Below are positions 2 through 55,487 of a stretch of 64,000 bases of DNA, one piece after another; positions within the stretch are counted from its first letter, which is position 1, and every line of letters starts with the position of its first letter. The translations under genes were made by a program, and so were the position numbers. This DNA is from an uncultured Clostridia bacterium (GTDB lineage: Bacteria > Bacillota > Clostridia > TANB77 > CAG-508), in assembly GCA_963556905.1 (NCBI GenBank), contig CAUWAY010000005.1, positions 279 through 64,278 of the forward strand, given 5' to 3'. A model generated the notes under the pieces. The model was not told the origin of the DNA. It searched no databases and was given only the letters and a program-made list of their open reading frames with translations.

Positions 2-3000
2 AAAATAACAGGAAAAGTAACAGGACAAGAAATATACAAAACTAATATATGTGTTGCAAATGGAGAAATAGAAGATATAACATGTGAATGCTTAGATTAT
101 AAAGGGAGATATGCTGCATGTAAACATATAGTATCAACAATGATGGAATTTTCAGAAAACAACAAATATGAAGAAATTCTAAAAGAACAAGGAAAAATAG
201 AGGTAAATAAAAACATAAGAACAGACCTAAAATACAGAACCTTTAATCAAATAATAAACGAACTATATGAAGAAGAAATGCAAGAAGCGGAAGAAACTCA
301 AATAGAAAAAGATTCAGAAAATAAAATAAAAATTGAGCCAAAACTAATATTTGATAAATATTACAATAACTTAAGGCTAGAATTCAAAATAGGAAACCAA
401 AGAATGTACAAAATAAAAAATCTAACTGAATTTTATGAAAGAATGATAAATAAAGAAAAATATAAATATGGAAATAAACTAGAATTCAAACATACTAAAG
501 AATCATTTGAAGAAGAAGACAGACAATTATTAGAATTCATATTAAAACATGCAGAAATGATAAAATTTGTAAACTCTAGTGCAAACTCAAGCTATAGATA
601 TTATTCTAAAGTTTTAAGTGAAGAATATATAGTACTAAACAGTAGTGAATTAGATGAAATATTTGAAATATTAAAAGAAAAAGAAATATTATTTCAAAAA
701 GAAAGTGAAGAAATAAAAGTAAAACTTAAAGAACAAGACCCAGATCTACACTTTGTAATAAAAAAATCAAAAGGAGAAGAATACAAAATTGTAACAAACA
801 AAAATAATGGAATAGTAAGAAATATAGAAATATTTAATGGAAAATTATCAAAATATATATTACAAGAAGATTATATTTATAAATGTAGCGAGAAATATGA
901 AAAGTCAGTACTAAGACTAATACAAATATTTAAACAAAACTATATAACAGAGATAACATTTGGAAAAGAACAATTACCAGAATTATTTTCAATAATATTA
1001 CCAAAAATGAAAGATAACATAGAATTTAAAGGAATAAAAGAAGAAGAATTAGAACAATATAAACCAAAAAAATTAGGAATAAAAATCTTTTTAGATAATG
1101 ATGAAAATGACTATATAATAGCAGATGTTAAATTTTGTTATGGTGAAGAAGAATTTAACCCATTAGAACAAAAAATAAATATTAAATATCCAAGAGATAT
1201 AATAGCAGAAAACAAAGCAATAAACATTTTTAGAAAAACAGGTTTTATGTATTATGCCCAAAAACAATGTTTCATATTACCAGATGAAGAAAAAATTTAT
1301 AACTTTTTATCAACAGAAATAAATACATATATGCAAAAATTTGAAGTAATGGCAACAGACAACTTTAAAACAAAACAAGTAAAACAACCTAAAATAGGAA
1401 AATTAGGAGTAAAAATAGAAAATAATTTATTAACAATAAATCTAGACAAGCTAAATATCGACATAAAAGAACTAGAAGAAATAATGGAAAAATATAATCT
1501 AAAGAAAAAATATCATAAATTAAAAGATGGAAGCTTTGTGAATTTAGAAGAAAATCAAGATATAGAATTTATAGATAAACTAATTTCAGGAACAAATATA
1601 ACATATAAAGAATTAGACAAAGGAAACGTAAAACTACCAATAAACAGAAGCTTATACTTAAACCAGTTATTAAAAACAATTCCTGATACACAAGTAGACA
1701 AAAATTTGGAATATAAAAAAATTGTAAATAGACTAGATAAAGAAGATAATGAAGATGATATTCAAATTCCACAAAGTATTGAAAAAGTGTTAAGGTATTA
1801 CCAAAAAACAGGATATAAATGGCTTAAAGTAATAGATAATTATAAATTTGGTGGGATTTTAGCAGATGACATGGGACTTGGAAAAACAATACAAATGTTA
1901 TCAATAATAATAGGCTATATTGAACAAGAAGATGAAAGTAAAAAAAAGGCATCAATAGTAATATGCCCAAGTTCGTTAACACTAAACTGGCAAAATGAAG
2001 CACAAAAATTTACCAATGGATTAAAAACAATAGTAATAAGAGGAACTGCACAAGAACGTGAACAACAAATTAAACAAATTGAAAAATATGATTTAGTAAT
2101 AACATCTTATGATTTATTAAAAAGAGATATAGAAATATATAAAGAAAAAAAATATCAATTTAGATTTTCAATAGCAGATGAAGCACAATATTTAAAAAAT
2201 AGTAATACACAAAATGCAAAAGCAGTAAAAGAAATTTCAGCAGACACTAGATATGCTTTGACAGGTACACCAATAGAAAATTCATTAGCAGAACTATGGT
2301 CAATATTTGATTATATAATGCCAGGATATTTATTTACATATAAAAAATTTAAAACAGAATATGAAACACCAATTATAAAAGAAAATGACCAAAGAGTTAT
2401 GAAAAAATTAAAAATGTTAATAGAACCATTTGTGCTAAGAAGAACAAAAAAACAAGTACTAACAGAGTTACCTGAAAAAACATTAACAATATTAAATAAT
2501 CAGATGAAAGAAGAACAAGAAAAAATATATATAAATTATCTAGCGCAAGCAAAACAAGAGGTAGCAGAAACAATAAACTTAAATGGAATTGAAAAAAGTC
2601 ATATTCAAGTATTAGCAGCACTTACAAGACTAAGACAAATTTGTTGTCATCCAAGTTTATTTATTAAAGACTACCAAGAAGGAAGTAGTAAATTAGAGCA
2701 ATGTGTAGAAATTATAAAAGATGCAACAGAAGCGGGACATAAAATTTTACTATTTTCAGGATATACATCAATGTTTGAAATTATTGAAAAAGAATTAAAA
2801 GAAAAAGAAATAACATATTTTAAACTAACAGGGGCAACAAAAGTTGATGAAAGAATTAAAATGGTAGATGAATTTAATGAAAATAAAGAAATAAAAGTAT
2901 TTCTAATTTCACTTAAAGCAGGAGGAACAGGACTAAACTTAACAGGGGCAGATGTTGTAATACATTATGATCCGTGGTGGAATGCATCAGCTGAAAATCA

Positions 3001-3196
3001 AGCAACAGACAGAGCTTATAGAATAGGGCAAAAAAACAATGTTCAAGTATATAAATTAATAACTAAAAACTCAATAGAAGAAAAAATTTATGAATTGCAA
3101 CAAAAGAAATCTCAGCTTATAGATGATATGCTTAATACAAAAACATCATTTATAAGTAAACTTTCAAAAGATGATATAATGAAACTATTTGAATAA
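2..3196 (+). CDS. SWIM zinc-finger / SNF2-family DNA helicase (YwqA-like), 5' end outside window
   Basis: The frame is open from the window edge. Residues before the ORF-track Met140 read [17 protein letters not shown], a SWIM CxCxnCxH finger, so Met140 is internal. Helicase motifs are present: [10 protein letters not shown] (I), DEAQ (II), LTGTPIEN (III), [11 protein letters not shown] (VI). Confidence 0.9.
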
Positions 3197-3233
3197 AAAA
3201 TTAATATATAAATTATATAAGGAATGTGAAAAA

Positions 3234-4598
3234 ATGAAAGAATATATAACAGTAATAGGCGGAGGACTTGCAGGAAGTGAAGCTGCATATCAAATAGCCA
3301 AAAGAGGAATAAAGGTAAAATTATTTGAAATGAAACCCAGAAAATTTACAGAAGCACATAATAATCCAAATTTAGCAGAAATAGTCTGTAGTAATTCACT
3401 TAAATCAAATTTACATACAAATGCATGTGGGCTACTAAAAGAAGAATTAAGATATTTAGACTCATTATTAATAAAAATAGCAGATAAAACGCAAGTGCCA
3501 GCAGGTCAAGCACTAGCTGTAGACAGAGAATTGTTTGCAAAAGAAGTTACAAAAGAAATTGAAAAAAATCCATATATAGAAGTAATTCATGAAGAAATAA
3601 CAAATATATCTCAAATGAGTAAAGAGGGAATCGTAATAATAGCAACAGGTCCATTAACAACAGAAAAAATGGCAAAAGAAATAGCTAAAATAACAGGAGA
3701 AGACAAACTATATTTTTATGATGCAGCAGCGCCAATAATAACTAAAGAAAGTATAAATTTTAATATTGCATTTTATGGAAATAGATATGACCAAGAAAAA
3801 GCAAAAGAAGAAAGTATAGAAATGTGGAAAGAAAGAATAAAAACACAAAATGCAAGTTATATAAATCTTCCAATGAATAAAGAAGAATATGAAAAATTTG
3901 TACAGGAACTAATAAGTGCAGAAGTAGTAACACTACATGACTTTGAAAAAAGAGAAATATTTGAAGGGTGTATGCCTATTGAAATAATGGCGAAAAGAGG
4001 AATAGATACATTAAGATTTGGACCATTAAAACCAGTAGGATTTGACGATCCAAGAACTGGTAAGAGACCATATGCAATAGTACAATTAAGACAAGATGAC
4101 AAAAATGGTATAATATATAATATTGTTGGATTTCAAACAAATTTAAAATATGGAGAGCAAAAAAGAGTATTTAGCATGATACCAGGACTAGAAAATGCCG
4201 AATTTGTAAAATATGGAGTAATGCATAGAAATACATATATAAATTCTACAAAATTATTAGACAATACATACAACTTAAAAAATAACCCTAATATATTTTT
4301 TGCAGGACAAATAACTGGAGTTGAAGGATATGTAGAATCGATTTCATCAGGAATGATATCAGCATTAAATGCAATTACAAAATACAATTTACAAGAAAAA
4401 ATAGAATTTTCAGAACAAACAATGATAGGAGCATTATCAAAATACATATCGACACCAAATGACAAATTCCAGCCAATGAATGCGAATTTTGGAATTTTGC
4501 CAGAACTTGATGAAAAAATAAAAGACAAAAAGATAAAATACGAAAAACTAGCAAATAGAGCAATAGAAAAATTAAAACAAACAAAAATCTTGCAATAA
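3234..4598 (+). CDS. trmFO: Methylenetetrahydrofolate-tRNA-(uracil54-C5)-methyltransferase TrmFO
   Basis: N-terminal [17 protein letters not shown]-binding motif and CSNSLKS motif; about 455 aa, typical of TrmFO/Gid. ATG 3234 follows AAGGA. The ORF-track TTG 3189 overlaps the upstream gene and is unlikely to be the start. Confidence 0.92.
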
Positions 4599-4680: not shown

Positions 4681-4716
4681 GATGTTATCGCAGTATATAA
4701 AACAAAAGAAAGGAGT

Positions 4717-4743
4717 TTATTAAGTAAGCAAACTACTTGATAA
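4717..4743 (+). promoter_or_regulatory. Hairpin inserted between SD (AAAGGAG 4709-4715) and the ATG 4753
   Basis: ttattaagta(a)g-caaa-ctacttgataa: about 11 bp, one G-U pair and one bulge. 1 nt separates SD from stem, and 9 nt separate stem from ATG. Confidence 0.55.
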
Positions 4744-4752
4744 GACTAGGAA

Positions 4753-6300
4753 ATGAATAGTTTAGAGAGAATAGAAGAAAATTTAAGAAATTACATAAAA
4801 AACAAAAAAGATAAACAAGAACAGATAAAGAAAATAGAAAATCAAAGAATAGATTTATCATGTAAAAGAAATGAAAAAAAAGCAGAAAACAAAATTAACA
4901 ATAATGCAAATACTTGGGAAGAAATAAATCTTTTAGGAAGACAAATATCAGAACTAGGAAATCAAAGTCAAGAAATACAAAATCAAATAGACACAAAACT
5001 TGTTGAAATCAAAGCACAAGCATATATAGAAATAGACAACTTAATAGTAGAAGAATTAAGAAAAATGCATATAATAGATGAAGAAATACAAGAGATGTCT
5101 GAAACTAATTCAAAACTAGAAGAAAAAAGCCTAAAATATGAACTAGAAAAACAAGAATTTTTTACAAGATTTGGAAGAATGCCAGAGCTATCTCAAAAAG
5201 CTATTCAAGAGAGCAAAAAACAACAAGAGATACATGATTCAAATATTAAAGAAATCAAAAAATTAAATAGTGTGAAACAACAAACAGAGCAAGAAATACA
5301 AAATTTATCAAAAACAAAAAGAAAAATAAAGCATGGAGAAATTTATGAATTTTTAGAAGACAAACAACAAAGCACAATTCAAACTATAACAAACCATGAA
5401 GAAATAGAAGATATATCAATAGAAATAGAAAATGAACCTATAGTAGAAGAAAAAATTCTCTTAGAAGTTGAACCAATAGAAGAAATTAAAGTAGAAGAAT
5501 TCGAACCAATACAAGAAATACAAGTGGAAGAGCTTGAACCAATACAAGAAATACAAGTAGAGGAACTTGGACCAATACAAGAAATGCAAATAGAAGAATT
5601 TAAACAAGAAGAAATGTCAGAAGATTCAGAAGAAGATTTAATAAGAGAAATAGAAAAACAATTAATAGAAGAACAAGACATAATAACATTTGAAGAAAAT
5701 AAAAAAAATATAGATATAATAGAAGAAATAAATAAAAATCTACCATTAGCAATACAAGACATAGTAATAAAGATAGAAAACAAAGAACTAGTTTATAAAG
5801 CACAAATAAGTAATGGAGAAGAAATAATAGTATACCCATGCAAAGAAAGTAAAATAATAGACGACAAAAAAACAAAAAAAGAATTAAAAGAAAAATTAGC
5901 AGAATATTCAAAAATAGAATATAAACAATTTGACAAAAATGCAATAAGAAAAATAGATCCTATAATATGTACAATGTTATCTAATTTTGCAGAAAAATAC
6001 AATCAAAGTGCAAACAATTTAATATATAATTATGTAATGTCATTTTCAAATAATGGAGAATGTGACTATGATTTACTACCAAAGATAACATATAATCTAT
6101 CATATATAAAAGAAGCAAACATAAGCAAAAAAGAACAAAAAAAATTAGAAAAAATATGTGCAAATGCAAACAAAAATGATCAAATAAATACAATAGGGCT
6201 TTTAAGCAAAACAGACAAAATTAAATATTTTATAAGAAAAACATTTAATATAACAAAAGCAAAATTACTAACAGAAGGAAAAATACAAAATTTTAATTAA
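4753..6300 (+). CDS. Hypothetical K/E/Q-rich coiled-coil protein with 11-aa acidic tandem repeats
   Basis: 515-aa ORF with coding-strand A-richness like its neighbours and its own TTGCAT-N17-TATGAT promoter. No recognisable catalytic motif. Confidence 0.7.
   Translation: MNSLERIEENLRNYIKNKKDKQEQIKKIENQRIDLSCKRNEKKAENKINNNANTWEEINLLGRQISELGNQSQEIQNQIDTKLVEIKAQAYIEIDNLIVEELRKMHIIDEEIQEMSETNSKLEEKSLKYELEKQEFFTRFGRMPELSQKAIQESKKQQEIHDSNIKEIKKLNSVKQQTEQEIQNLSKTKRKIKHGEIYEFLEDKQQSTIQTITNHEEIEDISIEIENEPIVEEKILLEVEPIEEIKVEEFEPIQEIQVEELEPIQEIQVEELGPIQEMQIEEFKQEEMSEDSEEDLIREIEKQLIEEQDIITFEENKKNIDIIEEINKNLPLAIQDIVIKIENKELVYKAQISNGEEIIVYPCKESKIIDDKKTKKELKEKLAEYSKIEYKQFDKNAIRKIDPIICTMLSNFAEKYNQSANNLIYNYVMSFSNNGECDYDLLPKITYNLSYIKEANISKKEQKKLEKICANANKNDQINTIGLLSKTDKIKYFIRKTFNITKAKLLTEGKIQNFN
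5470..5601 (+). repeat. Four in-frame 33-bp tandem repeats (11-aa unit EPIQEIQVEEL) inside ORF 4753-6300
   Basis: The unit gaaccaatacaagaaatacaagtRgaRgaRctt occurs at 5470, 5503, 5536 and 5569 with a few substitutions. A degenerate fifth copy lies at 5434-5469. Confidence 0.9.
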
Positions 6301-9820: not shown

Positions 9821-9920
9821 GCAATGTAATAAAATGTTATTAAATTTAAAAAATAAAAAGTAGCATGAAGTAATTTTTAAAATTGCTTCATTGCTAACTA
9901 AAAACAAGGAGGAATAAAAA

Positions 9921-11123
9921 ATGGCAAAAGCAAAATTTGAAAGAACAAAGCCACACGTTAACATCGGTACAATCGGACACGTTGACCATGGAAAAACAAC
10001 AACAACAGCTGCTATCACAAAATACCTAGGATTATTAGGTAAAGCTCAATTTACAGCTTATGATAAAATAGACGGAGCTCCAGAAGAAAAAGCAAGAGGA
10101 ATTACAATTAACACAGCTCACGTAGAATATGAAACAGAAAATAGACACTATGCACACGTAGACTGTCCAGGACATGCTGACTATGTAAAAAACATGATTA
10201 CAGGTGCAGCACAAATGGATGGTGCAATACTTGTAGTATCTGCTGCTGATGGTCCAATGCCTCAAACAAGAGAACACATACTATTAGCAAGACAAGTAGG
10301 TGTAAAATATATAGTAGTATACTTAAATAAATGTGATATGGTTGATGACCCAGAACTATTAGAATTAGTAGAAATGGAAGTTAGAGACCTATTAACAGAA
10401 TATGGATTCCCAGGAGATGAAATTCCAGTTATAAAAGGATCTTCATTAAAAGTATTAGAGAGCACATCAACAAATCCAGATGATGAAGTATATGCTCCAA
10501 TGAAAGAATTAATGGCTGCTGTTGATAGCTATATACCAACACCAGAAAGACCAGTAGATCAACCATTCTTAATGCCAGTTGAAGACGTATTCACAATTAC
10601 AGGACGTGGAACAGTTGCAACAGGTAGAGTAGAAAGAGGAATAATAAAAGTTTCTGACGAAGTTGAAATCGTAGGATTATCAGCAGACAGAAAGAAAACA
10701 GTAGTTACTGGTGTAGAAATGTTCAGAAAATTATTAGATCAAGCAGAAGCTGGAGACAATATAGGAACATTATTAAGAGGAGTTGATAGAAAAGATATCG
10801 AAAGAGGTCAAGTACTAGCAAAACCAGGATCAATAAATCCACATACAAAATTCACATCAGAAGTATATGTTCTAACAAAAGAAGAAGGTGGAAGACATAC
10901 TCCATTCTTCAATGGATATAGACCACAATTCTATTTTAGAACAACAGACGTAACAGGTGTTATTGAATTACCTGCTGGAACAGAAATGGTTATGCCAGGA
11001 GATAACGTATCAATGACAATTGAATTAATTACACCAATCGCTATCGAAAAAGGATTAAGATTTGCTATTCGTGAAGGTGGTAGAACAGTTGGTTCAGGAG
11101 TTGTAGCTGATATTATAGCTTAA
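9921..11123 (+). CDS. tuf: Elongation factor Tu
   Basis: [39 protein letters not shown]; 400 aa. Confidence 0.98.
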
Positions 11124-11141
11124 TTTGCATAAATATATATA

Positions 11142-11171
11142 AGAGAAGTCAAGAAATTGGCTTCTTTTTTT
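11142..11171 (+). terminator. Intrinsic terminator after tuf
   Basis: Stem of about 8 bp (gagaagtc / ggcttctt, one G-U pair) followed by a T7 run. Confidence 0.75.
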
Positions 11172-11230
11172 CTATATAAAACATGATAAAAACTATATAT
11201 AATTAATAAAATAGAATAAATTAGTTAAAA

Positions 11231-11259
11231 TTGACAATTTTTTTAAACTATGATACAAT
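11231..11259 (+). promoter_or_regulatory. Sigma-A-type promoter for ORF 11301
   Basis: TTGACA-N17-TACAAT with extended TGa. Confidence 0.7.
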
Positions 11260-11300
11260 TATTATGTAGATAAATAAAAATAAATTTAAGGAGGAAATGT

Positions 11301-12593
11301 ATGAACCATAAAGAGAAAAAATGGGAAAAACAATACAAAGAATATGAAACAACTATAGATACTAAATTATCAGATTTAGAAAATAAAGTAAAAGAAAAAA
11401 GCATTAAAAGAGAAGAATACGGAGAATATCAAAAATTATTAAAAATAAAGAATAATATGTCACAATTAAAAAATTTATCAGAATATATATTAGAAGCTGA
11501 AAAAATTAGAGAAAAAATAGAAGATGAGTTAGTTAATAGAAACAATTCTAAAGACACGACTAAGCCAGAACTTGATAAATTAGACTTAGAAGATGAAAAA
11601 ATTAATTCAAAAATAATGTCAATACAAAAACAATTAAAAGATTCAAAATTATCAGAAGCTCAGAAAACAGTATTAAAAGAAGAATTAAGACAAGAAATTG
11701 AAAACAAAAAAGAAAATAATAATAAATACTCTGCTATATATAATAAAAAAGAAGAAATAAAAGAAGAAACAGAATTTACTAAGATGTCATCAAAAGAATT
11801 AATAGAAGCACATAAAAAAATATGTATGAAAATATCTAAAGCTCATTATTTAGGAAAAAAATTATCAGAAGGTCAAAAATTACAAGATATAAATTTACAA
11901 TATAACAAAGAATTTGATGAATCAAAATTTGCTCATAACTTAAATATAAATAGAATTATTGAAAATAGAAAAAAATTTACTGCAAAGGATAAACAAGCTC
12001 AAAAACTAGAAGGATTAAAAGAGGCAGCAAAAGCAGAAAATATAGAACTTAAATTGGAAAAAAATGACAAAGATACTGAAAAGACAAGTAGAAAATTGAA
12101 TTTGGAAAATGTAAAAAAAGAGATAAATTCAGAAAAAACTGATAAAGAAGACAAAAAACAAGAAGAATCTTTAGTACTTATTAGTGAATTTGATCAAAAA
12201 CATCCTAGAATTGCAAAAATTAAAAACTTCTTTAAAGAAATTAAAGATAAAGTTACAAGGAAATTTAATAAAGAAGAAACTGAAATTGAACAAAAACCTA
12301 AAGCTGAGGAAAAAACTGAAGTCGAGGAAAAACCTAAGGTTGAAGAAAAACAAAAAGAAGACACACAATATGAAAAGTTTAGAAAATCAATTAGCTATAA
12401 AGAATTTGAAAAATACGATGTATCAACTATTGCAGAAAAAGGTTTAGACGCATTACAAGAAGAAAAGATAAACAATGCTAGAGAAACATTAATTGCTGCT
12501 AAAATATCTGGAGGAATGGCAAAAGAATCAGCAGAAAAGAGTGTAGACAATGCGGTAAACAGATTACATAGAGAAGATGGTAATGAAAGATAA
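11301..12593 (+). CDS. Hypothetical highly charged (K/E) coiled-coil protein
   Basis: 430-aa ORF with strong SD (AAGGAGG), its own TTGACA-N17-TGnTACAAT promoter and a downstream intrinsic terminator. No enzymatic motif recognised. Confidence 0.7.
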   Translation: MNHKEKKWEKQYKEYETTIDTKLSDLENKVKEKSIKREEYGEYQKLLKIKNNMSQLKNLSEYILEAEKIREKIEDELVNRNNSKDTTKPELDKLDLEDEKINSKIMSIQKQLKDSKLSEAQKTVLKEELRQEIENKKENNNKYSAIYNKKEEIKEETEFTKMSSKELIEAHKKICMKISKAHYLGKKLSEGQKLQDINLQYNKEFDESKFAHNLNINRIIENRKKFTAKDKQAQKLEGLKEAAKAENIELKLEKNDKDTEKTSRKLNLENVKKEINSEKTDKEDKKQEESLVLISEFDQKHPRIAKIKNFFKEIKDKVTRKFNKEETEIEQKPKAEEKTEVEEKPKVEEKQKEDTQYEKFRKSISYKEFEKYDVSTIAEKGLDALQEEKINNARETLIAAKISGGMAKESAEKSVDNAVNRLHREDGNER

Positions 12594-12601
12594 CAAAATT
12601 G

Positions 12602-12628
12602 AAAGATAGAGTTTACTCTATCTTTTTT
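12602..12628 (+). terminator. Intrinsic terminator after ORF 11301
   Basis: aaagatagag-ttta-ctctatcttt plus a T-run. Confidence 0.85.
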
Positions 12629-12676
12629 GTAGAGTTAAAAGAAACTTTGAGGGTTCTATAAAATTTTACAAAACTA

Positions 12677-12705
12677 TTGCAATTTTATAAAAAGAATAAT
12701 AAAAT
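12677..12705 (+). promoter_or_regulatory. Sigma-A-type promoter upstream of plsX
   Basis: TTGCAA-N17-TAAAAT. Confidence 0.55.
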
Positions 12706-12782
12706 ATAATCATTATGAATAATAATAAACTAATATAAAATAAAAGCTAAAATAAGAACAGAAAATGAAAGGAAATGAAAAC

Positions 12783-13796
12783 ATGAACATACTACTAGAT
12801 GCAATGGGAGGAGACAACGCACCAGATGCAAATATAAAAGGAGCAATAAAGGCAATACAGCAAATAAAAGCAGAAGTAACATTAATAGGAAAAGAAGAAA
12901 CAATTAGAAAGAAAGTAAAACAATTTACAGGAAAAGAGATTGAAGAAATATCACCACGACTAAAAATCAGAAATGCAACAGAAACAATAGAAATGGAAGA
13001 TGGACCAACAGATGCAATAAAACATAAAAAAGACTCATCAATGGTAGTTGGATTTAAAATGTTGAAAAATGGAGAAGGAGATGTATTTATATCTGCTGGA
13101 AACTCAGGAGCACTATTAGTTGGGGCAACACTATTAGTAGGAAGAATAAAAGGAATAGATAGACCAGCACTAGCAGGAATACTACCAGCATATAAAAGTA
13201 GATTATTACTAATAGATTCTGGTTCAAACACTAATTGTAAGCCAATAAACCTATTACAATTTGCACAAATGTCAACAATATATTTAAGAAACACATTTGG
13301 AATAGAACATCCAACAATAGGCTTGTTAAATATAGGAACAGAAGAAACAAAAGGAAATGAACTAGTAAAAGAAAGTTACCAACTATTAAAAGAAAAATCA
13401 AAAGAATTAGATATAAACTTTATAGGTAATGTTGAAGGAAGAGATGCTTTTTCAGGAAAAATTGATGCAATAGTAACAGACGGATTTACAGGAAATGTAT
13501 TTTTAAAAACAACAGAAGGACTTGGAAAATTTGTAAAAAGAACATTATCAGAAAGTTTAACAAAAAACATTATATCTAAAATATGTACAATACCATGTCT
13601 ACCAGCAATAAACAGATTTAAAAAAACTATGGACTATAAAACATATGGAGGAGCACTATTTTTAGGAGTAAAGAAACCAGTAGTAAAAGCTCATGGAAGT
13701 AGTGATGAAAAATTATTTGAATTTACAATAAAACAAGCAGAAAAATTTGTAGAAAATAAAGCAGTAGACAGAATGATAGAAGAATTCGAAAAATAA
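12783..13796 (+). CDS. plsX: Phosphate acyltransferase PlsX
   Basis: MNILLDAMGGDNAP N-terminus and GNVFLK motif. ATG 12783 is preferred over ORF-track 12765 (better SD, and a canonical PlsX N-terminus). Confidence 0.92.
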   Translation: MNILLDAMGGDNAPDANIKGAIKAIQQIKAEVTLIGKEETIRKKVKQFTGKEIEEISPRLKIRNATETIEMEDGPTDAIKHKKDSSMVVGFKMLKNGEGDVFISAGNSGALLVGATLLVGRIKGIDRPALAGILPAYKSRLLLIDSGSNTNCKPINLLQFAQMSTIYLRNTFGIEHPTIGLLNIGTEETKGNELVKESYQLLKEKSKELDINFIGNVEGRDAFSGKIDAIVTDGFTGNVFLKTTEGLGKFVKRTLSESLTKNIISKICTIPCLPAINRFKKTMDYKTYGGALFLGVKKPVVKAHGSSDEKLFEFTIKQAEKFVENKAVDRMIEEFEK

Positions 13797-13965
13797 AATT
13801 TTGAACGGTCAGTACAAAAAAATGAAAATATACTTGACAAAAATATAAACATATAATATAAATGTTAAAGACATTCAAGGCAAAGCAATGTATATAAAAA
13901 CATGCTTAAAACATGAAAAGTAAAAGAAATATATTATGTAACACTTGGGAGGAGGTGAACTTGTT

Positions 13966-14205
13966 ATGAGTTCAGAAGAAGTATTTGAAAAAGTAAAAGG
14001 AATAATTGTAGAACAATTAGGAGTTGCTGAAGCAGCAGTTACAACAGAAGCATCATTTATAGATGATTTAGGAGCAGACTCTTTAGATATAGTAGAATTA
14101 GTAATGGCATTAGAAGAGGAATTTGATATTGAAATTCCAGACGCAGATGCAGAAAAAGTTGTTACTGTAGGAGATGTAGTAGATTACATAAAAGAAAATG
14201 TATAG
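13966..14205 (+). CDS. acpP: Acyl carrier protein
   Basis: [20 protein letters not shown] contains the phosphopantetheine-attachment Ser. ATG 13966 lies 9 nt after GGAGGAGG; the ORF-track start 13945 lies inside the SD. Confidence 0.93.
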
Positions 14206-14210
14206 TAAAT

Positions 14211-14243
14211 AAAAAGCTATGTTATTTTATAACATAGCTTTTT
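14211..14243 (+). terminator. Intrinsic terminator after acpP
   Basis: aaaaagctatgttat-ttt-ataacatagcttttt: a long perfect stem running into the T-run. Confidence 0.85.
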
Positions 14244-14292
14244 GCTTTATAAAAAGCACCATTTATATAACAGAAAAACTTTACATAAACCA

Positions 14293-14321
14293 TTGCGAAA
14301 ATTGTCTAAATGTGATATAAT
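14293..14321 (+). promoter_or_regulatory. Sigma-A-type promoter of the deaminase-fusion gene
   Basis: TTGCGA-N17-TATAAT with extended TGa, downstream of the acpP terminator. Confidence 0.65.
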
Positions 14322-14385
14322 AGAAAGCAATATTTTCAAAAAATAAAAAACAAAAACTAAAATCTAGAAAGAAAAGAGGAATAAA

Positions 14386-16881
14386 ATGATAAGTAAATTT
14401 TATTTAGACAAAGAAAAAGACATAATAGTAAAATTAGACAAAACAGGAGATGATGAAATTACATACACACTAGAAACCCCAAATCATAATACAGGTAATT
14501 TAATCACAAATTTAGCTCAAATATGTAATCTAGAAACAGTAAAAAACGAAAAAGACATGAAAATAATCAAAGGAAAGATATCAGCTAGTGTAAATGGGGA
14601 CAATGAAGAAGTATATATATTCAGATTAGGTGGAATAAAAATTGCCAATATATATGAAAACAGAATAGAAATAAAAGCACAAATACCAGCAATAACTAAA
14701 ACATTAATGTCACAAACAAAACATTATAAACTGCCAATAGAAAAAACAATTGTAAAAACATATATATTAAAAAAATCAAAATTCAGAACAGACTTACATA
14801 CACATGCAAATGCAAACTTATCACCAGACTGTTTAATAGCCTTAGGAATAGCACATCAAGTAAGATATCCATTATATTATATCAAAAAATTAAATTTAAA
14901 ATTAACTCAAGAACAAGAAGAAAAAATATATAAACAAAGAAAAGATACAGAGAAACAATATAAAGACAGTTCTTTACAAGGAAAATACCTAACCAGAAAA
15001 ATAGATGACAATACATTTATAAACTTTGCAGACTTTATATTAAACAATATAGAAAATGCCATGTACAATATAGAAAAAATAAGAACAAGTTTAGCAATAC
15101 TAAAAGACGGTCAAGCAGTATTTACTAACCTAGAAAAATGTTATATTTATAGATATGTATTTGCAAAAGGAATAGAATCAAACGAAAAAATAGAATTAAC
15201 AGAAAATTTAATTAGAACAATACCAGAAGAAGATATTAAAAATATAGTACTAAAAATGTTAGAAGACAAAAAAGCAAAAAGTCCATATAAAAACAATACA
15301 TTAAGACAAGATAAACTTTTATGGATTGCAAGAGAATACCAAAAACAAGGAATAAAATATGTAGAATTAGCAGATACAGACTTAGCCAAAATAGGAGAGC
15401 CAGCAGTAAAACTATTGCAGGAAGTACACGATATTTTTCCAGAAATAGAAAAAGAAACAGGAGTAAAAATAAGATACTTATTAGCAATAAGAAGAATACC
15501 ATTAACAATAATAAAAGACCAAAAAACTAGTAATACATACTTAAAAGAAAATATAAATGTATTAAAAGCAGTAGCAAAAAGTCCATATGTTGTAGGAAGC
15601 GACTTTATAGGAGAAGAAATAAATGACATATCAGATTTACAACCAGCAATACAAGAAATCGTAAAATATGTTAGAGAAGAAGACAAAGATTTTACAATTA
15701 GAATACACGCAGGAGAAAACGACAGTTTAAGAAATAATGTAAGAAAATCAATATTATGTGTAAAAGAGTCACTAAAAGACGGTCAAAAAATGCCAAAATG
15801 TAGAATAGGGCATGGTCTATATTCAGAAGACTTAAATAGTCAAGAAGGAGAAGAACTATTACAATTAATGAGAGAAACTGGAGTTGTAATAGAATTCCAA
15901 TTAACATCAAATGTAAGATTAAACAATATAAGTGATTTATCAAGCCATCCAATCAAAAAATTTCTGAAAAATGGAATAAAATGTGTACAAGGAACAGATG
16001 GATGCGGATTTTATGGTTCAGACACATATGATGAGCAACTAGCACTCCAAAATCTTTTAGACTTAACAAATGAAGATTTTGAAAAGATGAGAAATGTTGA
16101 AGATGAAATAATAGAAAATAGTGATAAATATTTCAAAGAAAAGAGCAAAAATTTTGAAAAATTCTTAAATGGAAGAACAATAAGAGAAGCAATACTTGAG
16201 TTAGAAGAAAAAAATATAAAAGAATCTGAAAATCAAAATGAACTAAGAACAAGTAATAATTTGGAAACAGAAAAAGAGTTATCACAAAAAATAATAAATC
16301 TCCCAACAGATAAGGTACCTGTAGTAATTGCAGGAGGAAGTTTTAATACAAAAGGAAGAGAAACATTAGTTACAGAAGAAGGTTTAAATGTATTAAGAGA
16401 ACTCATAAAAAATGCAAATAATGATAATATATATTTTGTAATAGGACATAAAATGCAAGGATATGAAAAAGCTGTAATAGACATATCAAAAGAAATGAAG
16501 AAAAAATTTGAAATAGACGCGATTGTTCCAAAAGTAGTTACTCAAAAAGTTAAAGACAGATTGTTAGACGAAAACTTAAATGGAATTTGTATTTCACCAG
16601 AAACAGAAGAATTAGGAATATATAAAAGCTTTAATTATGAAATCTTTGAAAGAAGAAAAGCAATTGTAATAGCATTTGATGGAAACTCACCAGTATTAAA
16701 CCTTGTGCAAGAAGCTAAAAATGGAAAAGGCAAATCAAAAATATATGTTAACCAAGGAAATCACCTATTAAAAGAAAAAGCAGATACATTAGAAGGATAT
16801 GTTATACCATTTAAAATGCAAGAAAATGTAACAGCAAAAATATTTGAAGACAATCCAGAAATAGTAGAATATAAAATATAA
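14386..16881 (+). CDS. Adenosine/AMP-deaminase-fold protein with unknown N-terminal domain and C-terminal LOG/SLOG-like Rossmann domain
   Basis: Amidohydrolase/ADA signature set: LHTH (H138/H140), VVGSDFIGEE, RIHAGE (441-444), CRIGHG (473-477), QLTSN, GTDG (536-539). The C-terminus (about aa 640-812) carries VVIAGGS, FVIGHKMQGYE and VIAFDGNSPVLNLVQEA. The gene has its own promoter and SD. Confidence 0.8.
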   Translation: MISKFYLDKEKDIIVKLDKTGDDEITYTLETPNHNTGNLITNLAQICNLETVKNEKDMKIIKGKISASVNGDNEEVYIFRLGGIKIANIYENRIEIKAQIPAITKTLMSQTKHYKLPIEKTIVKTYILKKSKFRTDLHTHANANLSPDCLIALGIAHQVRYPLYYIKKLNLKLTQEQEEKIYKQRKDTEKQYKDSSLQGKYLTRKIDDNTFINFADFILNNIENAMYNIEKIRTSLAILKDGQAVFTNLEKCYIYRYVFAKGIESNEKIELTENLIRTIPEEDIKNIVLKMLEDKKAKSPYKNNTLRQDKLLWIAREYQKQGIKYVELADTDLAKIGEPAVKLLQEVHDIFPEIEKETGVKIRYLLAIRRIPLTIIKDQKTSNTYLKENINVLKAVAKSPYVVGSDFIGEEINDISDLQPAIQEIVKYVREEDKDFTIRIHAGENDSLRNNVRKSILCVKESLKDGQKMPKCRIGHGLYSEDLNSQEGEELLQLMRETGVVIEFQLTSNVRLNNISDLSSHPIKKFLKNGIKCVQGTDGCGFYGSDTYDEQLALQNLLDLTNEDFEKMRNVEDEIIENSDKYFKEKSKNFEKFLNGRTIREAILELEEKNIKESENQNELRTSNNLETEKELSQKIINLPTDKVPVVIAGGSFNTKGRETLVTEEGLNVLRELIKNANNDNIYFVIGHKMQGYEKAVIDISKEMKKKFEIDAIVPKVVTQKVKDRLLDENLNGICISPETEELGIYKSFNYEIFERRKAIVIAFDGNSPVLNLVQEAKNGKGKSKIYVNQGNHLLKEKADTLEGYVIPFKMQENVTAKIFEDNPEIVEYKI

Positions 16882-16906
16882 AAAACAACAAATTTACTCA
16901 AAACAC

Positions 16907-16935
16907 TTGACAAATGTTAAAAAATAGTGTAAAGT
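16907..16935 (+). promoter_or_regulatory. Sigma-A-type promoter upstream of ylxM-ffh
   Basis: TTGACA-N17-TAAAGT. Confidence 0.55.
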
Positions 16936-17017
16936 ATATTAGCATTACACATAAATATAATTAATCTTAAATTAATATTTAAGTATAATAGCAACACTTA
17001 AGAGGTGGTAGTAAGAA

Positions 17018-17365
17018 ATGGAAGAAAAAGTGAAAATAAGTATGTTATGGCAAATATATGGAAAACTATTAACAGAAAAACAATATAAATACATAGATTA
17101 CTACTACAATAATGACTTATCTTTATCAGAAATTGCAGAAAACGAGCAAATTACAAGACAAGCAGTAAGAGATATCATCAAAAAGGGGGAAAGAAAACTT
17201 TTCGAATACGAAGAAAAGCTATTGTTTATGAAGAAGACAATTAATCAAGAACAAAAAATACAACAAGTTTTATTGAATTTAACAAAAATACAAAAAGACT
17301 CATCAGATAAACAAATAAGTAGTATTTTGGAAGAAATAAAAAAAGAATTAAATTGTTTAGTGTAA
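17018..17365 (+). CDS. ylxM: YlxM/UPF0122 putative DNA-binding protein (sigma-70 region 4-like HTH)
   Basis: About 115 aa, LSLSEIAENEQITRQAVRDIIKKGE HTH, immediately upstream of ffh as in Bacillota. Confidence 0.85.
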   Translation: MEEKVKISMLWQIYGKLLTEKQYKYIDYYYNNDLSLSEIAENEQITRQAVRDIIKKGERKLFEYEEKLLFMKKTINQEQKIQQVLLNLTKIQKDSSDKQISSILEEIKKELNCLV

Positions 17366-17385
17366 ACAAAAGATAGGAGGAAAGT

Positions 17386-18738
17386 ATGGCATTTGAAGGA
17401 CTATCATCAAGACTACAAGAGATAACAAGAAAAATAAAAGGAAAAGCAAGAATAACAGAATCAGACTTAAAAGAAATGCTAAGAGAAGTGAAGCTTGCCC
17501 TATTAGAAGCAGATGTAAACTACAAAATAGTAAAAGAATTCATAGCAAGTATACAAGAAAAAGCATTAGGTCAGGATGTAATGAAATCATTAACACCAGG
17601 GCAACAAGTAATAAAAATTGTAAAAGACGAAATGGTAGAACTACTTGGAGGAACTGAAAGCAAAATAAACTTTACACCAAATCCACCAACAGTAATTATG
17701 TTAGTAGGATTACAAGGGTCAGGAAAAACAACTACAGCAGGAAAACTTGCAAACATTTTACGAAAAAAAGGAAAAAAACCATTGTTAGTAGCATGTGATA
17801 TATATAGACCAGCAGCTATAAAACAATTACAAGTAGTAGGAGCACAACTAAACATACCGGTATATAGTAACGAAACATCCAAAGATGTTGTACACATAGC
17901 AAAACAAGCAATGAGTGTAGCAATATCAAAACTAAATGATGTAGTAATATTAGATACAGCCGGAAGATTACATATTGATGATGAATTAATGCAAGAACTA
18001 AAAAATGTAAAAGCAAATATAAAACCACATGAAATTTTATTAGTAGTAGACTCAATGACAGGTCAAGATGCTGTAAATGTAGCACAAACATTTAATGAAG
18101 CAGTAGGCATAGATGGAGTAGTACTAACTAAATTAGATGGAGACACACGTGGTGGAGCAGCACTTTCAGTAAAAAAAGTCACAGGAAAGCCAATAAAATT
18201 TGCAGCTACTGGTGAAAAATTAAGTGATATAGAAATATTTAATCCAGAAAGAATGACATCAAGAATACTTGGAATGGGAGATGTGTTATCAATAATTGAA
18301 AAAGCAGAAGAAGCAATTACAGAAGAAGAAGCTGAAAAATTAGAACAGCAACTTCGAAAAAACGAATTAGACTTAGACGATTATTTAGCACAAATAAGAC
18401 AAGTAAAAAAGATGGGATCTTTTTCATCAATATTAAAAATGATACCAGGCATGAATAAAATAAAAGACCTAAATATTGATGACAAAGAATTTGACAAAGT
18501 TGAAGCAATTATTTGTTCAATGACAAAACAAGAAAAAAGAAATGTAAAACTACTAAATGCAAGTAGAAGGCAACGTATAGCAAAAGGTAGTGGAAGAACA
18601 GTACAAGAAATCAACAAATTCATAAAATCATTTGAAATGACACAAAAAATGATGAAACAAATGAAATCAAATAAAGGTGGAATAAAAAACTTAATGAAAA
18701 ATATGAATATGGAAGATTTGAAAAATTTAAAAATGTAG
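17386..18738 (+). CDS. ffh: Signal recognition particle protein Ffh
   Basis: GLQGSGKTTTAGKLA, DTAGR, TKLDGD and a Met-rich C-terminal M domain. Confidence 0.97.
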   Translation: MAFEGLSSRLQEITRKIKGKARITESDLKEMLREVKLALLEADVNYKIVKEFIASIQEKALGQDVMKSLTPGQQVIKIVKDEMVELLGGTESKINFTPNPPTVIMLVGLQGSGKTTTAGKLANILRKKGKKPLLVACDIYRPAAIKQLQVVGAQLNIPVYSNETSKDVVHIAKQAMSVAISKLNDVVILDTAGRLHIDDELMQELKNVKANIKPHEILLVVDSMTGQDAVNVAQTFNEAVGIDGVVLTKLDGDTRGGAALSVKKVTGKPIKFAATGEKLSDIEIFNPERMTSRILGMGDVLSIIEKAEEAITEEEAEKLEQQLRKNELDLDDYLAQIRQVKKMGSFSSILKMIPGMNKIKDLNIDDKEFDKVEAIICSMTKQEKRNVKLLNASRRQRIAKGSGRTVQEINKFIKSFEMTQKMMKQMKSNKGGIKNLMKNMNMEDLKNLKM

Positions 18739-21387: not shown

Positions 21388-23775
21388 ATGAAAGAGAAAA
21401 ACGAATTAAGTTATAAAGACCTAAAAATGGTATGTAATAAAGATATGTTTCATTTTGAAACAACACAAGAATTAGAACCTGTAAATGATGGAATAGGACA
21501 AGAAAGAGGAATAAAAGCATTAGAATTTGGTGTAAATGTAGATGTAAAAGGTTATAACATATATTTGGAAGGACCAAGTGGAGTTGGAAAAACGATGTAT
21601 ACAAAAAATTATTTAGACAGCATTGCCAAAAAGAAAAAAATTCCAAATGACTGGTGTTATATATATAACTTCAAGAATCCAAATGAACCAATAGCAGTAT
21701 CATTACCAGCAGGACAAGGGAAAGAATTTAAAGAAGCAATGGATGGCTTTATACAAGAAGTAAAAAAAGACATAAAGAAAACATTTAATGCTGATGATTT
21801 TGAAAAAGAGAAAGCACTAATAAAAAGAGAATTTGAAGAAAAAAGAGAAGTTGTAATGAACAAGCTTAGTGAAGATTCACAAAAACATGGATTTCAAGTA
21901 AAATCAGCACAAAATGGTATATATATGATGCCAATAATAAATGGAAAAGTAGTACAAGAAGAAGAATTTGAACAACTAGAAACTTCAATAAAACAAGAAT
22001 ATGAAGAAAAATCAGTTATTGTTCAACAACAAATAATGGAAGCAATAAGCCAAATAAAACAAATAGAAAGACAATCAGACAAAAAAGTATCTGAATGGCA
22101 GTCAAATGTAGCATTGCTAACAGTAAATGCACACATTAATTTTATAAAATCAAAATATAAAAGAAACAAAAAGATAAATCAATTTTTAAATGATGTAAAA
22201 CAAGATGTATTAAAAAATGTGTCATATTTTTTAGAAGAAGAAAAAATAGAAAATCAACAACAAATGCAACAAGGTCCAACGCAAAGGAGACTAGATCCAT
22301 GTTTGAACTATAGAGTAAATTTATTTATAGATAATAGTAATCAAGAAGGATGTCCAGTAATTATGGATTCTAACTATACATTTCATAACTTATTTGGAAA
22401 ATTAGAATATGAAAATTATTATGGACAACTAAAAACAGATTATACAATGCTAAAACCAGGATTATTGCAAAAAGCAAATGGAGGATATATCATATTTCAA
22501 GCTAAAGATTTATTATCAAATGGAATATGTTATGAAGAACTAAAAAGAGTTTTAAGAATAAAAGAAATAGCAATAGATAATTCAATGGAGCAACGTTCAT
22601 CAATGGCAATGATATCATTAAAACCAGAACCAATTCCATTAGAATTAAAAGTAATATTAATCGGAAATGCAAATATATATCATACACTACTTTCGATGGA
22701 TTCGGATTTTAGAAAATTATTCAAAATAAAAGTTGAATTTGAAGAAACAGCACCTATAAATGAGCCAAATGTAAATAAATTAGCACAATTTGTTCATACA
22801 TTTTGTGAACAAGAAGAATTACCTCATTTAGATAGAGGAGCAATGGCGAGAATTGTAGAATACGCTTCAAAAATTGCAGGAGATAACAGCAAACTTTCAA
22901 CAAGATTTACAGAATTAGGTCAAGTTGTAGGAGAAGCTGGAACATGGGCAAAACTTGCAAAAGCAAAAGTAGTAACAGCAGAATTTATAGATAAAGCACT
23001 AGCAGAAAGAGTTGAAAGAATAAAAAAATATGATGAAAGATATATTGAAATGATAAAAGAAAATACACTTTTAATAAACACAAAAGGCTCATTAGTTGGA
23101 GAACTAAATGGATTAACAGTAATGACGATAGGAGATTACACATTTGGAAAACCAGCCAAAATCACTGTAAACACATATACAGGAAAACAAGGAGTAGTAA
23201 ATATTGAAAGAGAAGTTGAACTTTCTGGTTCTACACATTCAAAAGGTGTATATATTCTTTCAGGATATATAGGGCAACTATTTGCACAAGATATGCCATT
23301 ATGTTTAACTGCAAGTATATGTTTTGAACAATTATACAACGGAGTAGACGGAGACAGTGCATCAAGTACAGAATTATACGGACTACTTTCTAGTTTATCT
23401 GAAATACCAATCAAGCAATCAATTGCTGTAACAGGTTCAGTAAATCAGAAAGGTCAAATTCAACCAATAGGTGGAGTAAATGAAAAAATTGAAGGATTTT
23501 TTCAAATATGTCAAATGCGTGGCTTAGATGGAACACATGGTGTTATGATACCAATACAAAATGTTAATAATTTACAACTTTCAGATGAAGTTGTTGAAGC
23601 AGTAAAAAATAAAAAATTCCATATATATGCAATATCAAATATTGATGAAGGAATTGAAGTATTAACAGGAGTTCCAGCAGGGAAAAGAGACAAAGACGGA
23701 AAATTTCCAGCAGGAACTATAAATTATCTTGTTTATGAAAAATTAAAAAAATATGCAAAAGCATGTGAAGAATAA
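21388..23775 (+). CDS. Lon-related (LonC/archaeal-LonB-like) AAA+ serine protease
   Basis: Walker A GPSGVGKT (aa 62-69), a long charged helical insertion, and a C-terminal S16 protease domain with DGDSASS (catalytic Ser) and a downstream Lys (VNQKGQIQPIGGVNEKIEGF). Confidence 0.85.
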   Translation: MKEKNELSYKDLKMVCNKDMFHFETTQELEPVNDGIGQERGIKALEFGVNVDVKGYNIYLEGPSGVGKTMYTKNYLDSIAKKKKIPNDWCYIYNFKNPNEPIAVSLPAGQGKEFKEAMDGFIQEVKKDIKKTFNADDFEKEKALIKREFEEKREVVMNKLSEDSQKHGFQVKSAQNGIYMMPIINGKVVQEEEFEQLETSIKQEYEEKSVIVQQQIMEAISQIKQIERQSDKKVSEWQSNVALLTVNAHINFIKSKYKRNKKINQFLNDVKQDVLKNVSYFLEEEKIENQQQMQQGPTQRRLDPCLNYRVNLFIDNSNQEGCPVIMDSNYTFHNLFGKLEYENYYGQLKTDYTMLKPGLLQKANGGYIIFQAKDLLSNGICYEELKRVLRIKEIAIDNSMEQRSSMAMISLKPEPIPLELKVILIGNANIYHTLLSMDSDFRKLFKIKVEFEETAPINEPNVNKLAQFVHTFCEQEELPHLDRGAMARIVEYASKIAGDNSKLSTRFTELGQVVGEAGTWAKLAKAKVVTAEFIDKALAERVERIKKYDERYIEMIKENTLLINTKGSLVGELNGLTVMTIGDYTFGKPAKITVNTYTGKQGVVNIEREVELSGSTHSKGVYILSGYIGQLFAQDMPLCLTASICFEQLYNGVDGDSASSTELYGLLSSLSEIPIKQSIAVTGSVNQKGQIQPIGGVNEKIEGFFQICQMRGLDGTHGVMIPIQNVNNLQLSDEVVEAVKNKKFHIYAISNIDEGIEVLTGVPAGKRDKDGKFPAGTINYLVYEKLKKYAKACEE

Positions 23776-54200: not shown

Positions 54201-54235
54201 TATATATGAGCAATAGGGCTAAAACAAATAAGTAC

Positions 54236-54264
54236 TTTACAAAACTTGAAAAAAGTGATATAAT
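54236..54264 (+). promoter_or_regulatory. Sigma-A-type promoter of pheST
   Basis: TTTACA-N17-TATAAT with extended TGa. Confidence 0.65.
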
Positions 54265-54270
54265 ACGAAA

Positions 54271-54299
54271 AGATTCGTCCTATTAAGGACGGATTTTTT
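54271..54299 (+). terminator. Terminator-like hairpin plus T-run immediately downstream of the pheS promoter -10
   Basis: agattcgtcc-tattaa-ggacggattt followed by ttttt. It could be the aspS terminator and/or a pheST leader attenuator. Confidence 0.6.
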
Positions 54300-54325
54300 G
54301 TAACCAAGAGAGGGGTAAACACAAA

Positions 54326-55441: not shown

Positions 55442-55487
55442 AATTAAAACAAATATCAGGTTATAATTTTCAAGGAGGAAATAAAAA

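Follow-up and report, generated by a model that had tools for sequence, protein, structure and literature searches.

An adenosine deaminase-SLOG gene downstream of acpP

The window analysed here is a 64,000-nucleotide stretch (positions 279 to 64,278, forward strand) of contig CAUWAY010000005.1 from an uncultured Clostridia bacterium (assembly GCA_963556905.1). At 14386..16881, on the + strand, it carries a gene for a protein of 831 residues in which an adenosine deaminase (ADA) barrel is joined to a C-terminal SLOG domain, referred to below as the ADA-SLOG gene. The open reading frame (ORF) is complete, with an ATG start and the stop codon included, and its product has more than 5,600 homologues and matches the Pfam model PF00962. 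An original prediction made from the DNA letters had drawn attention to this ORF, which is real and carries every motif quoted there at the residues given. The surroundings have a G+C content of 26%, which that of the gene resembles, and almost every gene in them lies on the + strand.

A sequence scan revealed a terminator-like hairpin with a perfect 15-bp stem 3′ of acpP (14211..14243) and a ribosome-binding site, AAGAGGA, before the ATG (14375-14381, + strand). A sigma-70-like promoter with a TG extension (TTGCGA-17-TGnTATAAT, 14293..14321, + strand) was recognised by consensus match only. The gene had been described as a monocistronic unit. Its own promoter match and the acpP hairpin are indeed present, but we found no terminator-like site between its stop codon and ylxM (17018), so that the monocistronic character is not established. 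The related remark that the gene sits where rnc-smc-ftsY is normally found carries no weight: the upstream genes are pheS-pheT in close relatives and a guaD-like gene in others. No ATPase or cyclase gene occurs near the ADA-SLOG gene in the window, and inspection of the large ORFs by eye revealed no TIR gene. At gathering score, Rfam gave no match in the 64-kb window or in six loci that combine guaD and ADA genes, and only noise appeared at E up to 1. Across the whole window (1-64000), T-boxes ahead of aspS, pheS or leuS, ribosomal-protein leaders and tRNAs were all missing at that score.

The barrel keeps the catalytic set of adenosine deaminases and lacks two of their aspartates

The AlphaFold2 (AF2) model of the full-length protein, built with 79 diverse homologues, reached a pLDDT (predicted local distance difference test) of 84.4 and a pTM (predicted template modelling score) of 0.87. 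The catalytic region, residues 131-600 (14776..16185, + strand), has the ADA/AMP-deaminase fold, an amidohydrolase TIM barrel of the zinc type, as indicated by PF00962, Foldseek, an alignment to Plasmodium ADA and the residues invariant in the family. The Pfam A_deaminase model PF00962 matched residues 315-569 (E 2.2e-20; 73.4 bits for a cutoff of 27). When residues ~131-600 were compared with the PDB by Foldseek, ADA, ADAL, AMPD and ADA2 structures were found at E 3e-11 to 1e-8; the best barrel matches, including 8qch, 3iar and 1add, had E values of about 1e-10 to 3e-11 and TM scores of about 0.65-0.74 on the target.

The motifs of the superfamily are readily located in the translation: H138/H140 in TDLHTH, VVGSDFIGEE at 402-411, RIHAGE (H441, E444), CRIGHG (H476), QLTSN at 505-509 and GTDG at 536-539. 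The metal and catalytic set (H138, H140, H441, E444, H476 and D538) is complete and invariant or nearly so in the family. H140 and H441 are separated by 301 residues, compared with 197 between H17 and H214 of mouse ADA, which bears out the proposal of about 100 extra residues between the HxH and HAGE motifs. The distance is 209 residues in the main family (P0163, H134 to H343), and the extra length is specific to the clade of the window protein and its nearest relatives. After HxH, before the remainder of the barrel, comes a helical elaboration (residues 141-300; 14806..15285, + strand), delimited by region lengths, invariant columns and model helices. It exceeds its counterpart in the main family by about 50-75 residues and carries the family-invariant residues F246, E250, Y253 and R256.

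Two positions are non-canonical: N142 and G539, at the places of D19 and D296 of mouse ADA, the former being two residues beyond the second His of HxH. In the HMMER alignment to Plasmodium ADA, GTDG lies opposite NSDD and G539 falls at the second Asp of the TDD triad, confirming the Asp-to-Gly replacement that had been proposed. The same holds in the family. PF00962 matched all 51 members that were compared, and the D19 position is Asp in none of them (Asn in the window protein, Ala in most), while the D296 position is Gly, Ser or Cys, and almost always Gly. The NCBIfam add equivalogs fail on the window protein (TIGR01430, 52.6 bits for a cutoff of 216.55; NF006846, 52.9 bits for a cutoff of 459), and no Pfam AMP_deaminase match was found for it. 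With both Add-defining aspartates replaced as well, the claim that this is not an ordinary salvage Add was upheld.

TaqCad1, which is ATP-specific, differs from canonical ADA at exactly these positions, D296 (Asn) and D19 (Gly) (PMC12669630). Both substituted residues contact ATP, the enzyme has no adenosine activity, and ATP deamination is abolished when the aspartates are restored (PMC12669630). The barrel region of the ADA-SLOG family also holds the invariant Arg/Lys residues R256, K302, R370 and R439, which were placed by sequence. The window protein retains each of the residues that do not vary within the family in the ADA region, and therefore its chemistry should match that of the module-associated relatives described below.

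The barrel is flanked by a conserved domain at the N terminus and by a SLOG domain at the C terminus

Residues 1-130 (14386..14775, + strand) form an alpha/beta domain that is present family-wide, with LD.., NL and LTAFETR-like motifs conserved across the family. It is the most conserved part of the protein within the window clade, with a mean pairwise identity of 0.81 and a dN/dS of 0.12. The domain had been called unrecognisable, and so it proved: Pfam searches with residues 1-135 at E 10 returned noise only, and a profile of the N-terminal region gave one meaningless match among PDB sequences. At the other side of the barrel, the AF2 model shows a long helical linker (residues 562-640; 16069..16305, + strand) made of helices 562-594 and 599-615. 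This is the least conserved part (identity 0.56) and includes a low-confidence segment at 616-627.

The C-terminal domain, residues 641-831 (16306..16878, + strand), was assigned to SLOG from an AF2 domain model, Foldseek and LSDAT_prok matches in relatives. Residues 628-831 modelled alone gave a pLDDT of 77. The best-ranked Foldseek matches of the C-terminal domain were all SLOG domains (TRPM1/2/3/4/8, DprA, LOG and Moco carrier protein; E 8e-5 to 1e-3, TM 0.5-0.7), the nearest being TRPM-type (LSDAT) N-terminal domains. Of the LOG/SLOG-like nature that had been suggested, the SLOG fold is borne out by these matches, but the LOG side is not: residues 601-831 alone gave only noise in Pfam at E 10, with no LOG (Lysine_decarbox) match, and the loop of the PGGxGTxxE type reads FDGNSPVLN. 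The description of a single-polypeptide sensor plus ADA effector is a fair account of this anatomy, in which a SLOG fold accompanies an ADA core.

No LSDAT match (PF18171 or PF18139) was found for the window protein. LSDAT_prok was matched by 4 of the 51 relatives (best E 4.1e-5), and PF18171 together with PF00962 is precomputed for the Chlamydiales member P0401. Distant members carry the series ITGAS ... YxVTGGTNxGVEK ... GGGxxVxDMIQRAHN ... LMDGPxGAS, and a profile of the family SLOG domain matched TRPM2 weakly, at the WIITGGTNTGV loop. The residues of this domain that are invariant in the family are P645, G650, S652 (near), G692, E694 (near), G766, Q775 and N779. Of the glycine-rich nucleotide-binding loops (GxS; GGxxxGxE; GGG...), which distant relatives have in full, only G650, S652, G687, G692, E694 and G766 are left in the window protein, where Q775 and N779 are kept too. 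The loops also exist in clade-specific versions (AGGSFN, GIYKSFNYEIFER and NL.QEAKNGKG). These are invariant inside the clade, which suggests that the window-clade SLOG domain is a functional pocket with changed specificity.

ADA-SLOG proteins form a widespread family associated with a multi-gene module

A search of 1.84 billion representatives retrieved 877 clusters, 160 of them at E <= 1e-30. Many cluster members are 750-1000 residues long, have 22-39% identity and show the same order of N-terminal domain, ADA, linker and SLOG. The family consists of hundreds of 50%-identity clusters over several phyla, named 'hypothetical' or 'adenosine deaminase' in their sources, which include gut 'Azospirillum' metagenome-assembled genomes (MAGs), Alphaproteobacteria, Ignavibacteriales, Christensenellaceae, Clostridia, Bacilli and Chlamydiales. 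Its signatures are TDLHTH, RxHAGE, RIGHG, SN and G(T/S)DGxGIY. Some members have extra C-terminal domains, Nuc_deoxyri_tr2-like in P0156 (locus L043, 8001-11051) and NUDIX in two others (alignment A1). The family is absent from phage and plasmid collections, where tblastn found ordinary add genes only, and from IMG/VR; a fold search of BFVD returned nothing informative. Literature searches and the Pfam, NCBIfam and PADLOC collections gave no report or model that joins SLOG with adenosine deaminase in one protein.

The genomic neighbourhoods of distant members were compared at 13 loci, with the neighbours clustered among themselves. A recurring module was found that consists of W, ADA-SLOG and Y, plus X and often NUDIX. 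W is a protein of ~165 residues encoded upstream (L048, 4817-5326; L129, 3275-3772; L131, 1808-2317; L133, 6445-6933 and 7017-7988; fused in L044, 10532-11900). It shows a weak similarity (E 0.012) to zinc-dependent phospholipase C and is sometimes fused to Z, a protein of ~295 residues present in L048 and L129 and, in fused form, in L044. Comparison of Z with the Pfam-RyR protein of L043 gave an hhalign probability of 4.7%, and no RyR identity is claimed for Z. X, a PGDYG-like protein (PF14083), lies directly beside the ADA-SLOG gene in four distant loci: L041 (7414-7929), L043 (7082-7750, - strand), L046 (6333-6977) and L131 (6210-6848, - strand). The PGDYG match has an E value of 3.3e-6 in L043 and 2.2e-3 in L046, is faint in L041, and the L131 protein was linked via BLAST only; a literature search found no paper on PGDYG.

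Y has ~150 residues and a basic amphipathic C-terminal helix. Its gene directly follows the ADA gene, whose stop codon often overlaps the Y start codon, in L046 (9445-9885), L048 (9465-9926), L129 (7182-7640), L131 (9430-9900) and L133 (10711-11190); further copies occur in L044, and a Y fragment in L043. No Pfam, NCBIfam or PADLOC match was obtained for Y. NUDIX domains are fused to 2 of the 51 members, and NUDIX genes occur at most three genes from the ADA gene in L043 (Nudt16-like), L047, L048 and the P0336 locus. In L043, the Nudt16-like gene and a gene for an RyR-domain protein adjoin the ADA-SLOG gene. Ham1-like and NTPase_I-T (ITPase-type) genes are found nearby in L046.

Other neighbours are mobile or defence-like: recombinases in L041 and L042, relaxases in L048 and L131, and methyltransferases in L044 and L131. 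L131, which holds a relaxase and DNA methylases, also encodes an ADP-ribosylglycohydrolase upstream (2419-3507) and, directly after ADA-Y, HD_4 and RelA_SpoT proteins of the alarmone type (9902-11672). Housekeeping flanks were seen in L129 and L130, and purA adjoins the ADA homologue in L132. Among the called neighbours of the 13 distant loci there were no cas gene names. No large ATPase adjoins the ADA gene. PADLOC gave no matches for W, X, Y, Z or the amidoligase described below, nor for the window protein, and no W, X, Y, Z or NUDIX-box ORF occurs in the 64 kb of the window.

The gene is conserved and mostly stand-alone in a clade of gut Clostridia

The window clade was sampled in 40 GTDB species representatives and 80 metagenome loci, making 121 loci with the window's own. 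All clade orthologues are full length and share 57-83% identity. The 40 species representatives all belong to uncultured gut Clostridia or to 'Clostridium sp. CAG' MAGs, and a complete chromosome among them measures 1.55 Mb. In the ~81% group, the gene is followed 3′ by ylxM-ffh-rpsP-KH-rimM-trmD-rplS, as in the window, and preceded by pheS-pheT. In the closest species group the orthologues are 77-82% identical to the window protein, a level similar to that of flanking core genes. In the window, aspS-pheS-pheT is found at 52458-57851 with pheS-pheT at 54-58 kb, ~36 kb 3′ of the ADA gene, and pheS-pheT lies immediately upstream of it in the closest species (compared in L003, L004, L005, L013, L026, L028-L030 and L034), which indicates a local rearrangement.

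The commonest neighbour over the 121 loci encodes a 153-residue GuaD-type deaminase; in the PDB it best matches the guanine deaminase of B. subtilis (E 1.6e-33) and guanosine deaminase from plants. This gene lies directly upstream, on the same strand and with a gap of ~80 bp, in 26 of 98 loci. Other clade neighbours examined are core genes (acpP, ylxM-ffh, pheST, rpe and pgi). Between close orthologues dN/dS is 0.06-0.13, and every domain is constrained.

Within the clade, Y is paired with a 369-residue Amidoligase_2 protein (Pfam E 2.9e-18) in L038 (about 4700-6300), L091 (2789-3898 and 3888-4337) and L093 (6388-7936); in L091 and L093 these two genes separate the guaD-like gene from the ADA gene. 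The nearest outgroup, the ~900-residue P0149/P0384 group, is reciprocally closest to the clade and shares its longer helical insert. Because this outgroup retains W-W-ADA-Y and some clade loci keep Y or NUDIX, with the window lacking partners, we read the stand-alone clade gene as descended from a module-associated ancestor.

Two further genes of the window were noted. The 795-residue LonB-related protein at 21388-23775 (TIGR00764, 173 bits for a cutoff of 517) is kept 3′ of rplS in relatives, at 84-87% identity. A 430-residue Lys/Glu-rich ORF at 11301-12593, between tuf and plsX, probably forms a coiled coil and has no NCBIfam match.

A ligand-regulated adenine-nucleotide deaminase is the favoured interpretation

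We propose, giving it about an even chance, that the gene encodes a three-module ligand-regulated adenine-nucleotide deaminase which has become, in this lineage, a resident valve on the purine-nucleotide pool. The protein would be cytoplasmic, and its barrel would convert a phosphorylated adenine nucleotide to the inosine nucleotide and ammonia. We infer such a substrate, with ATP or dATP most likely and AMP or ADP possible, because D19 and D296 are replaced as in the ATP-specific Cad1/CAAD, because the family has invariant Arg/Lys residues, and because NUDIX and ITPase-type genes are neighbours of relatives. The SLOG domain would bind a small nucleotide-type ligand and switch the barrel on or off via the long helical linker, by likeness to CARF in Cad1 and to SLOG in ThsA and TRPM2. 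As a valve, the enzyme could feed IMP and GMP by A-to-I conversion, or lower adenylates under stress. The clade gene was probably domesticated from the multi-gene, conflict-type module of other phyla (W, ADA-SLOG and Y, with or without NUDIX), because it is a stand-alone gene with vertical inheritance that evolves under strong purifying selection, has core-gene neighbours and often stands in an apparent operon with the GuaD-type deaminase.

Several observations weigh against this interpretation. Constitutive ATP-to-ITP conversion would be harmful, so that an immune effector would be a better fit than a housekeeping enzyme. In L133, the locus of the nearest outgroup, the surroundings (11767-17953) resemble a defence island, with genes for a MazG-like protein, an SLFN-g3 helicase, an AAA_21 protein, a 346-residue protein and a protein of the ThsB_TIR type (E 4.8e-7). 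Partners persist in a few clade members, Y in L038, L081, L091, L093 and L118 and an adjoining NUDIX gene in L016 and L118. The residues that replace the aspartates, Asn or Ala at D19 and Gly at D296, differ from the Gly and Asn of Cad1 and represent a parallel, not an identity, and the barrel fold is closer to classic ADA/ADAL (E 3e-11) than to Cad1 (2.5e-7) in Foldseek. The glycine loops of the window-clade SLOG domain are partly degenerate, with IGHKMQGYE in place of TGGTNxGVE, FDG in place of GGG and Asn where Asp is conserved; to judge from these letters, ligand binding could be altered or lost. Finally, a purine riboswitch upstream of the ADA-SLOG gene was not found by Rfam in the window or in the six guaD-ADA loci.

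The same design could serve immunity. The protein would then be an abortive-infection sensor-effector whose SLOG domain detects an infection-derived nucleotide (an ADP-ribose (ADPR) or cyclic ADPR-like molecule, or a phage product), and whose ADA core turns ATP/dATP into ITP/dITP and halts the cell, like Cad1/CAAD and RdrB. The architecture of sensor and ADA with Asp substitutions at the Cad1 positions agrees with such a role, as do NUDIX partners like those of CAAD and the translational coupling of Y to the ADA gene, which resembles that of an immunity or regulatory partner. Relatives also lie near recombinases (L041, L042), relaxases (L048, L131), a methyltransferase (L044) and the SLFN helicase, AAA_21 and ThsB_TIR genes of L133. 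The clade gene, however, is fixed and syntenic with core genes, every domain of it is constrained with the N-terminal domain most conserved, there are no partner genes in the 64 kb, PADLOC matches neither the protein nor W, X, Y or Z, and no family members turn up in collections of phages, plasmids and viral contigs. The defence-island setting thus applies in part: distant members have variable, mobile or defence-like surroundings with NUDIX, whereas the window clade has core-gene neighbours and no PADLOC match. We consider an immune role of the window gene possible but rather doubtful, and find that it fits the origin of the family better than the window gene.

Alternatively, the protein could be an ordinary if enlarged deaminase of purine salvage or catabolism whose substrate is free adenosine or adenine, with extra domains for oligomerisation or stability, and leading together with GuaD to hypoxanthine and xanthine. 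That the GuaD-type deaminase is the commonest neighbour, in an apparent operon arrangement, would suit this role, and so would the best Foldseek matches, ADA and ADAL, and the purA gene beside the distant homologue of L132. It is nevertheless improbable, given that both substrate-holding aspartates are missing, a loss that in Cad1 goes with no adenosine activity, and that the equivalog models fail widely. Strong purifying selection on the SLOG and N-terminal domains, with conserved pocket motifs, argues likewise, and NUDIX, Ham1 and NTPase_I-T genes near relatives point to nucleotide products. A two-step degradation of purine nucleotides, in which the ADA core would work with a LOG/PpnN-type N-glycosidase that releases the base and ribose-5-phosphate, had also been suggested. 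LOG structures (3sbx and 7w2i) are among the C-terminal Foldseek matches, and P0156 carries the Nuc_deoxyri_tr2-like extra domain. Against this, no Pfam LOG match appears even at E 10, the best matches are the non-enzymatic SLOG domains of TRPM, DprA and Moco carrier proteins, the loop equivalent to PGGxGTxxE is FDGNSPVLN with Asn at the acidic position (Asp in the wider family), and the TGGTNxGV shared with relatives is the LSDAT motif of TRPM. The deaminase-plus-nucleosidase idea is hence very unlikely to be correct.

For the family as a whole, a tentative generalisation, a little short of an even chance in our judgement, is that ADA-SLOG proteins are ligand-gated ATP/dATP (or AMP) deaminases from a conflict module, one copy of which became a fixed chromosomal gene standing alone in this abundant lineage of gut Clostridia. 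This copy would act as a SLOG-sensing immune effector or as an allosteric nucleotide deaminase, and the signal read by its TRPM-type SLOG domain would be ADPR-like or another nucleotide. Adenine-nucleotide deamination is so far known mainly from bacterial immune enzymes. If the proposed mechanism is true, bacterial nucleotide signalling gains a new pairing of sensor and effector, with W, Y and X as pointers to new partner proteins. The protein would be either the first deaminase immune effector to sense through SLOG within a single polypeptide or, among bacterial adenine-nucleotide deaminases, the first allosteric one, with control over energy charge and A-to-G purine flux. A conflict-type enzyme would then have turned into a core gene of small-genome gut bacteria, a case for the taming of a potentially toxic deaminase.

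Comparison of ADA-SLOG with known systems

Cad1/CAAD, the adenosine deaminase of type III CRISPR-Cas that is fused to CARF, is alike in that a nucleotide-sensor domain is fused to an ADA barrel, D19 and D296 are replaced, and NUDIX recurs as a partner of relatives. CAAD/Cad1 is reported to pair with a Nudix hydrolase that processes ITP (PMC13276650, PMC12993439), and the NUDIX partners of ADA-SLOG relatives parallel this published pair. In contrast to the N-terminal CARF of Cad1, which binds cyclic oligoadenylate, the sensor is here a C-terminal SLOG domain; an extra N-terminal domain without CARF match is present, and no CRISPR context was seen in the neighbours examined. Of the 51 family members, 46 match the PADLOC CARF_ADA model with their ADA part, at profile positions of about 218-560 of 605. 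These matches were rejected as a sign of Cad1 membership, as they concern the ADA-side part of the model only and reflect generic ADA homology.

In the Thoeris protein ThsA (SIR2-SLOG), a C-terminal SLOG sensor on an effector enzyme reads a nucleotide signal (PMC13276650). ADA-SLOG shares the arrangement of effector enzyme and C-terminal SLOG, but has an ADA effector and no SIR2. Its SLOG domain is TRPM/LSDAT-like, that of ThsA is of the STALD type, and no ThsA was among the top 50 Foldseek matches; no ThsB/TIR partner was noted in the window. The MHR1/2 regions of TRPM channels, members of the LSDAT clade of SLOG, are the best structural matches of the C-terminal domain, and relatives carry TGGTNxGV with LSDAT_prok and LSDAT_euk matches. 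MHR1/2 holds an ADPR site in TRPM2 and an ATP site in TRPM4, and the co-occurrence of NUDIX with ADA-SLOG relatives recalls TRPM2. Unlike TRPM proteins, ADA-SLOG is a soluble bacterial protein without a channel, and the glycine motif is partly lost in the window clade. TGGTNxGV in bacterial relatives, together with the NUDIX co-occurrence, bears on the bacterial origin of the ligand-sensing module of TRPM2.

RdrB of RADAR is a large ADA-fold enzyme that acts on ATP/dATP in defence. It differs in context and in fold matches, since no RdrA ATPase adjoins the ADA-SLOG gene, no PADLOC RdrB match was obtained and RdrB was not among the top 50 Foldseek matches. Eukaryotic AMPD and ADGF-ADA2 resemble ADA-SLOG in having an ADA core enlarged by extra domains, and the Foldseek matches to Helix AMPD and ADA2 span ~525 columns, more than those to classic ADA. 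AMPD also has an Arg two residues before the HxGE histidine, as ADA-SLOG does, but it keeps the DD pair, which ADA-SLOG does not. Its regulatory domains are different, with no Pfam AMP_deaminase match here. Canonical Add (TIGR01430) shares the superfamily, the metal ligands and the catalytic Glu and His; the window protein differs by its 831 residues compared with ~330, by the replacement of D19 and D296 and by two extra domains. The window protein is outside Cad1, RADAR, ThsA and LOG. Attack on the nucleotide pool by ADA-fold enzymes (Cad1/CAAD, RdrB) and sensing by SLOG (ThsA, TRPM2) are each known, and ADA joined to SLOG is a new pairing of the two.

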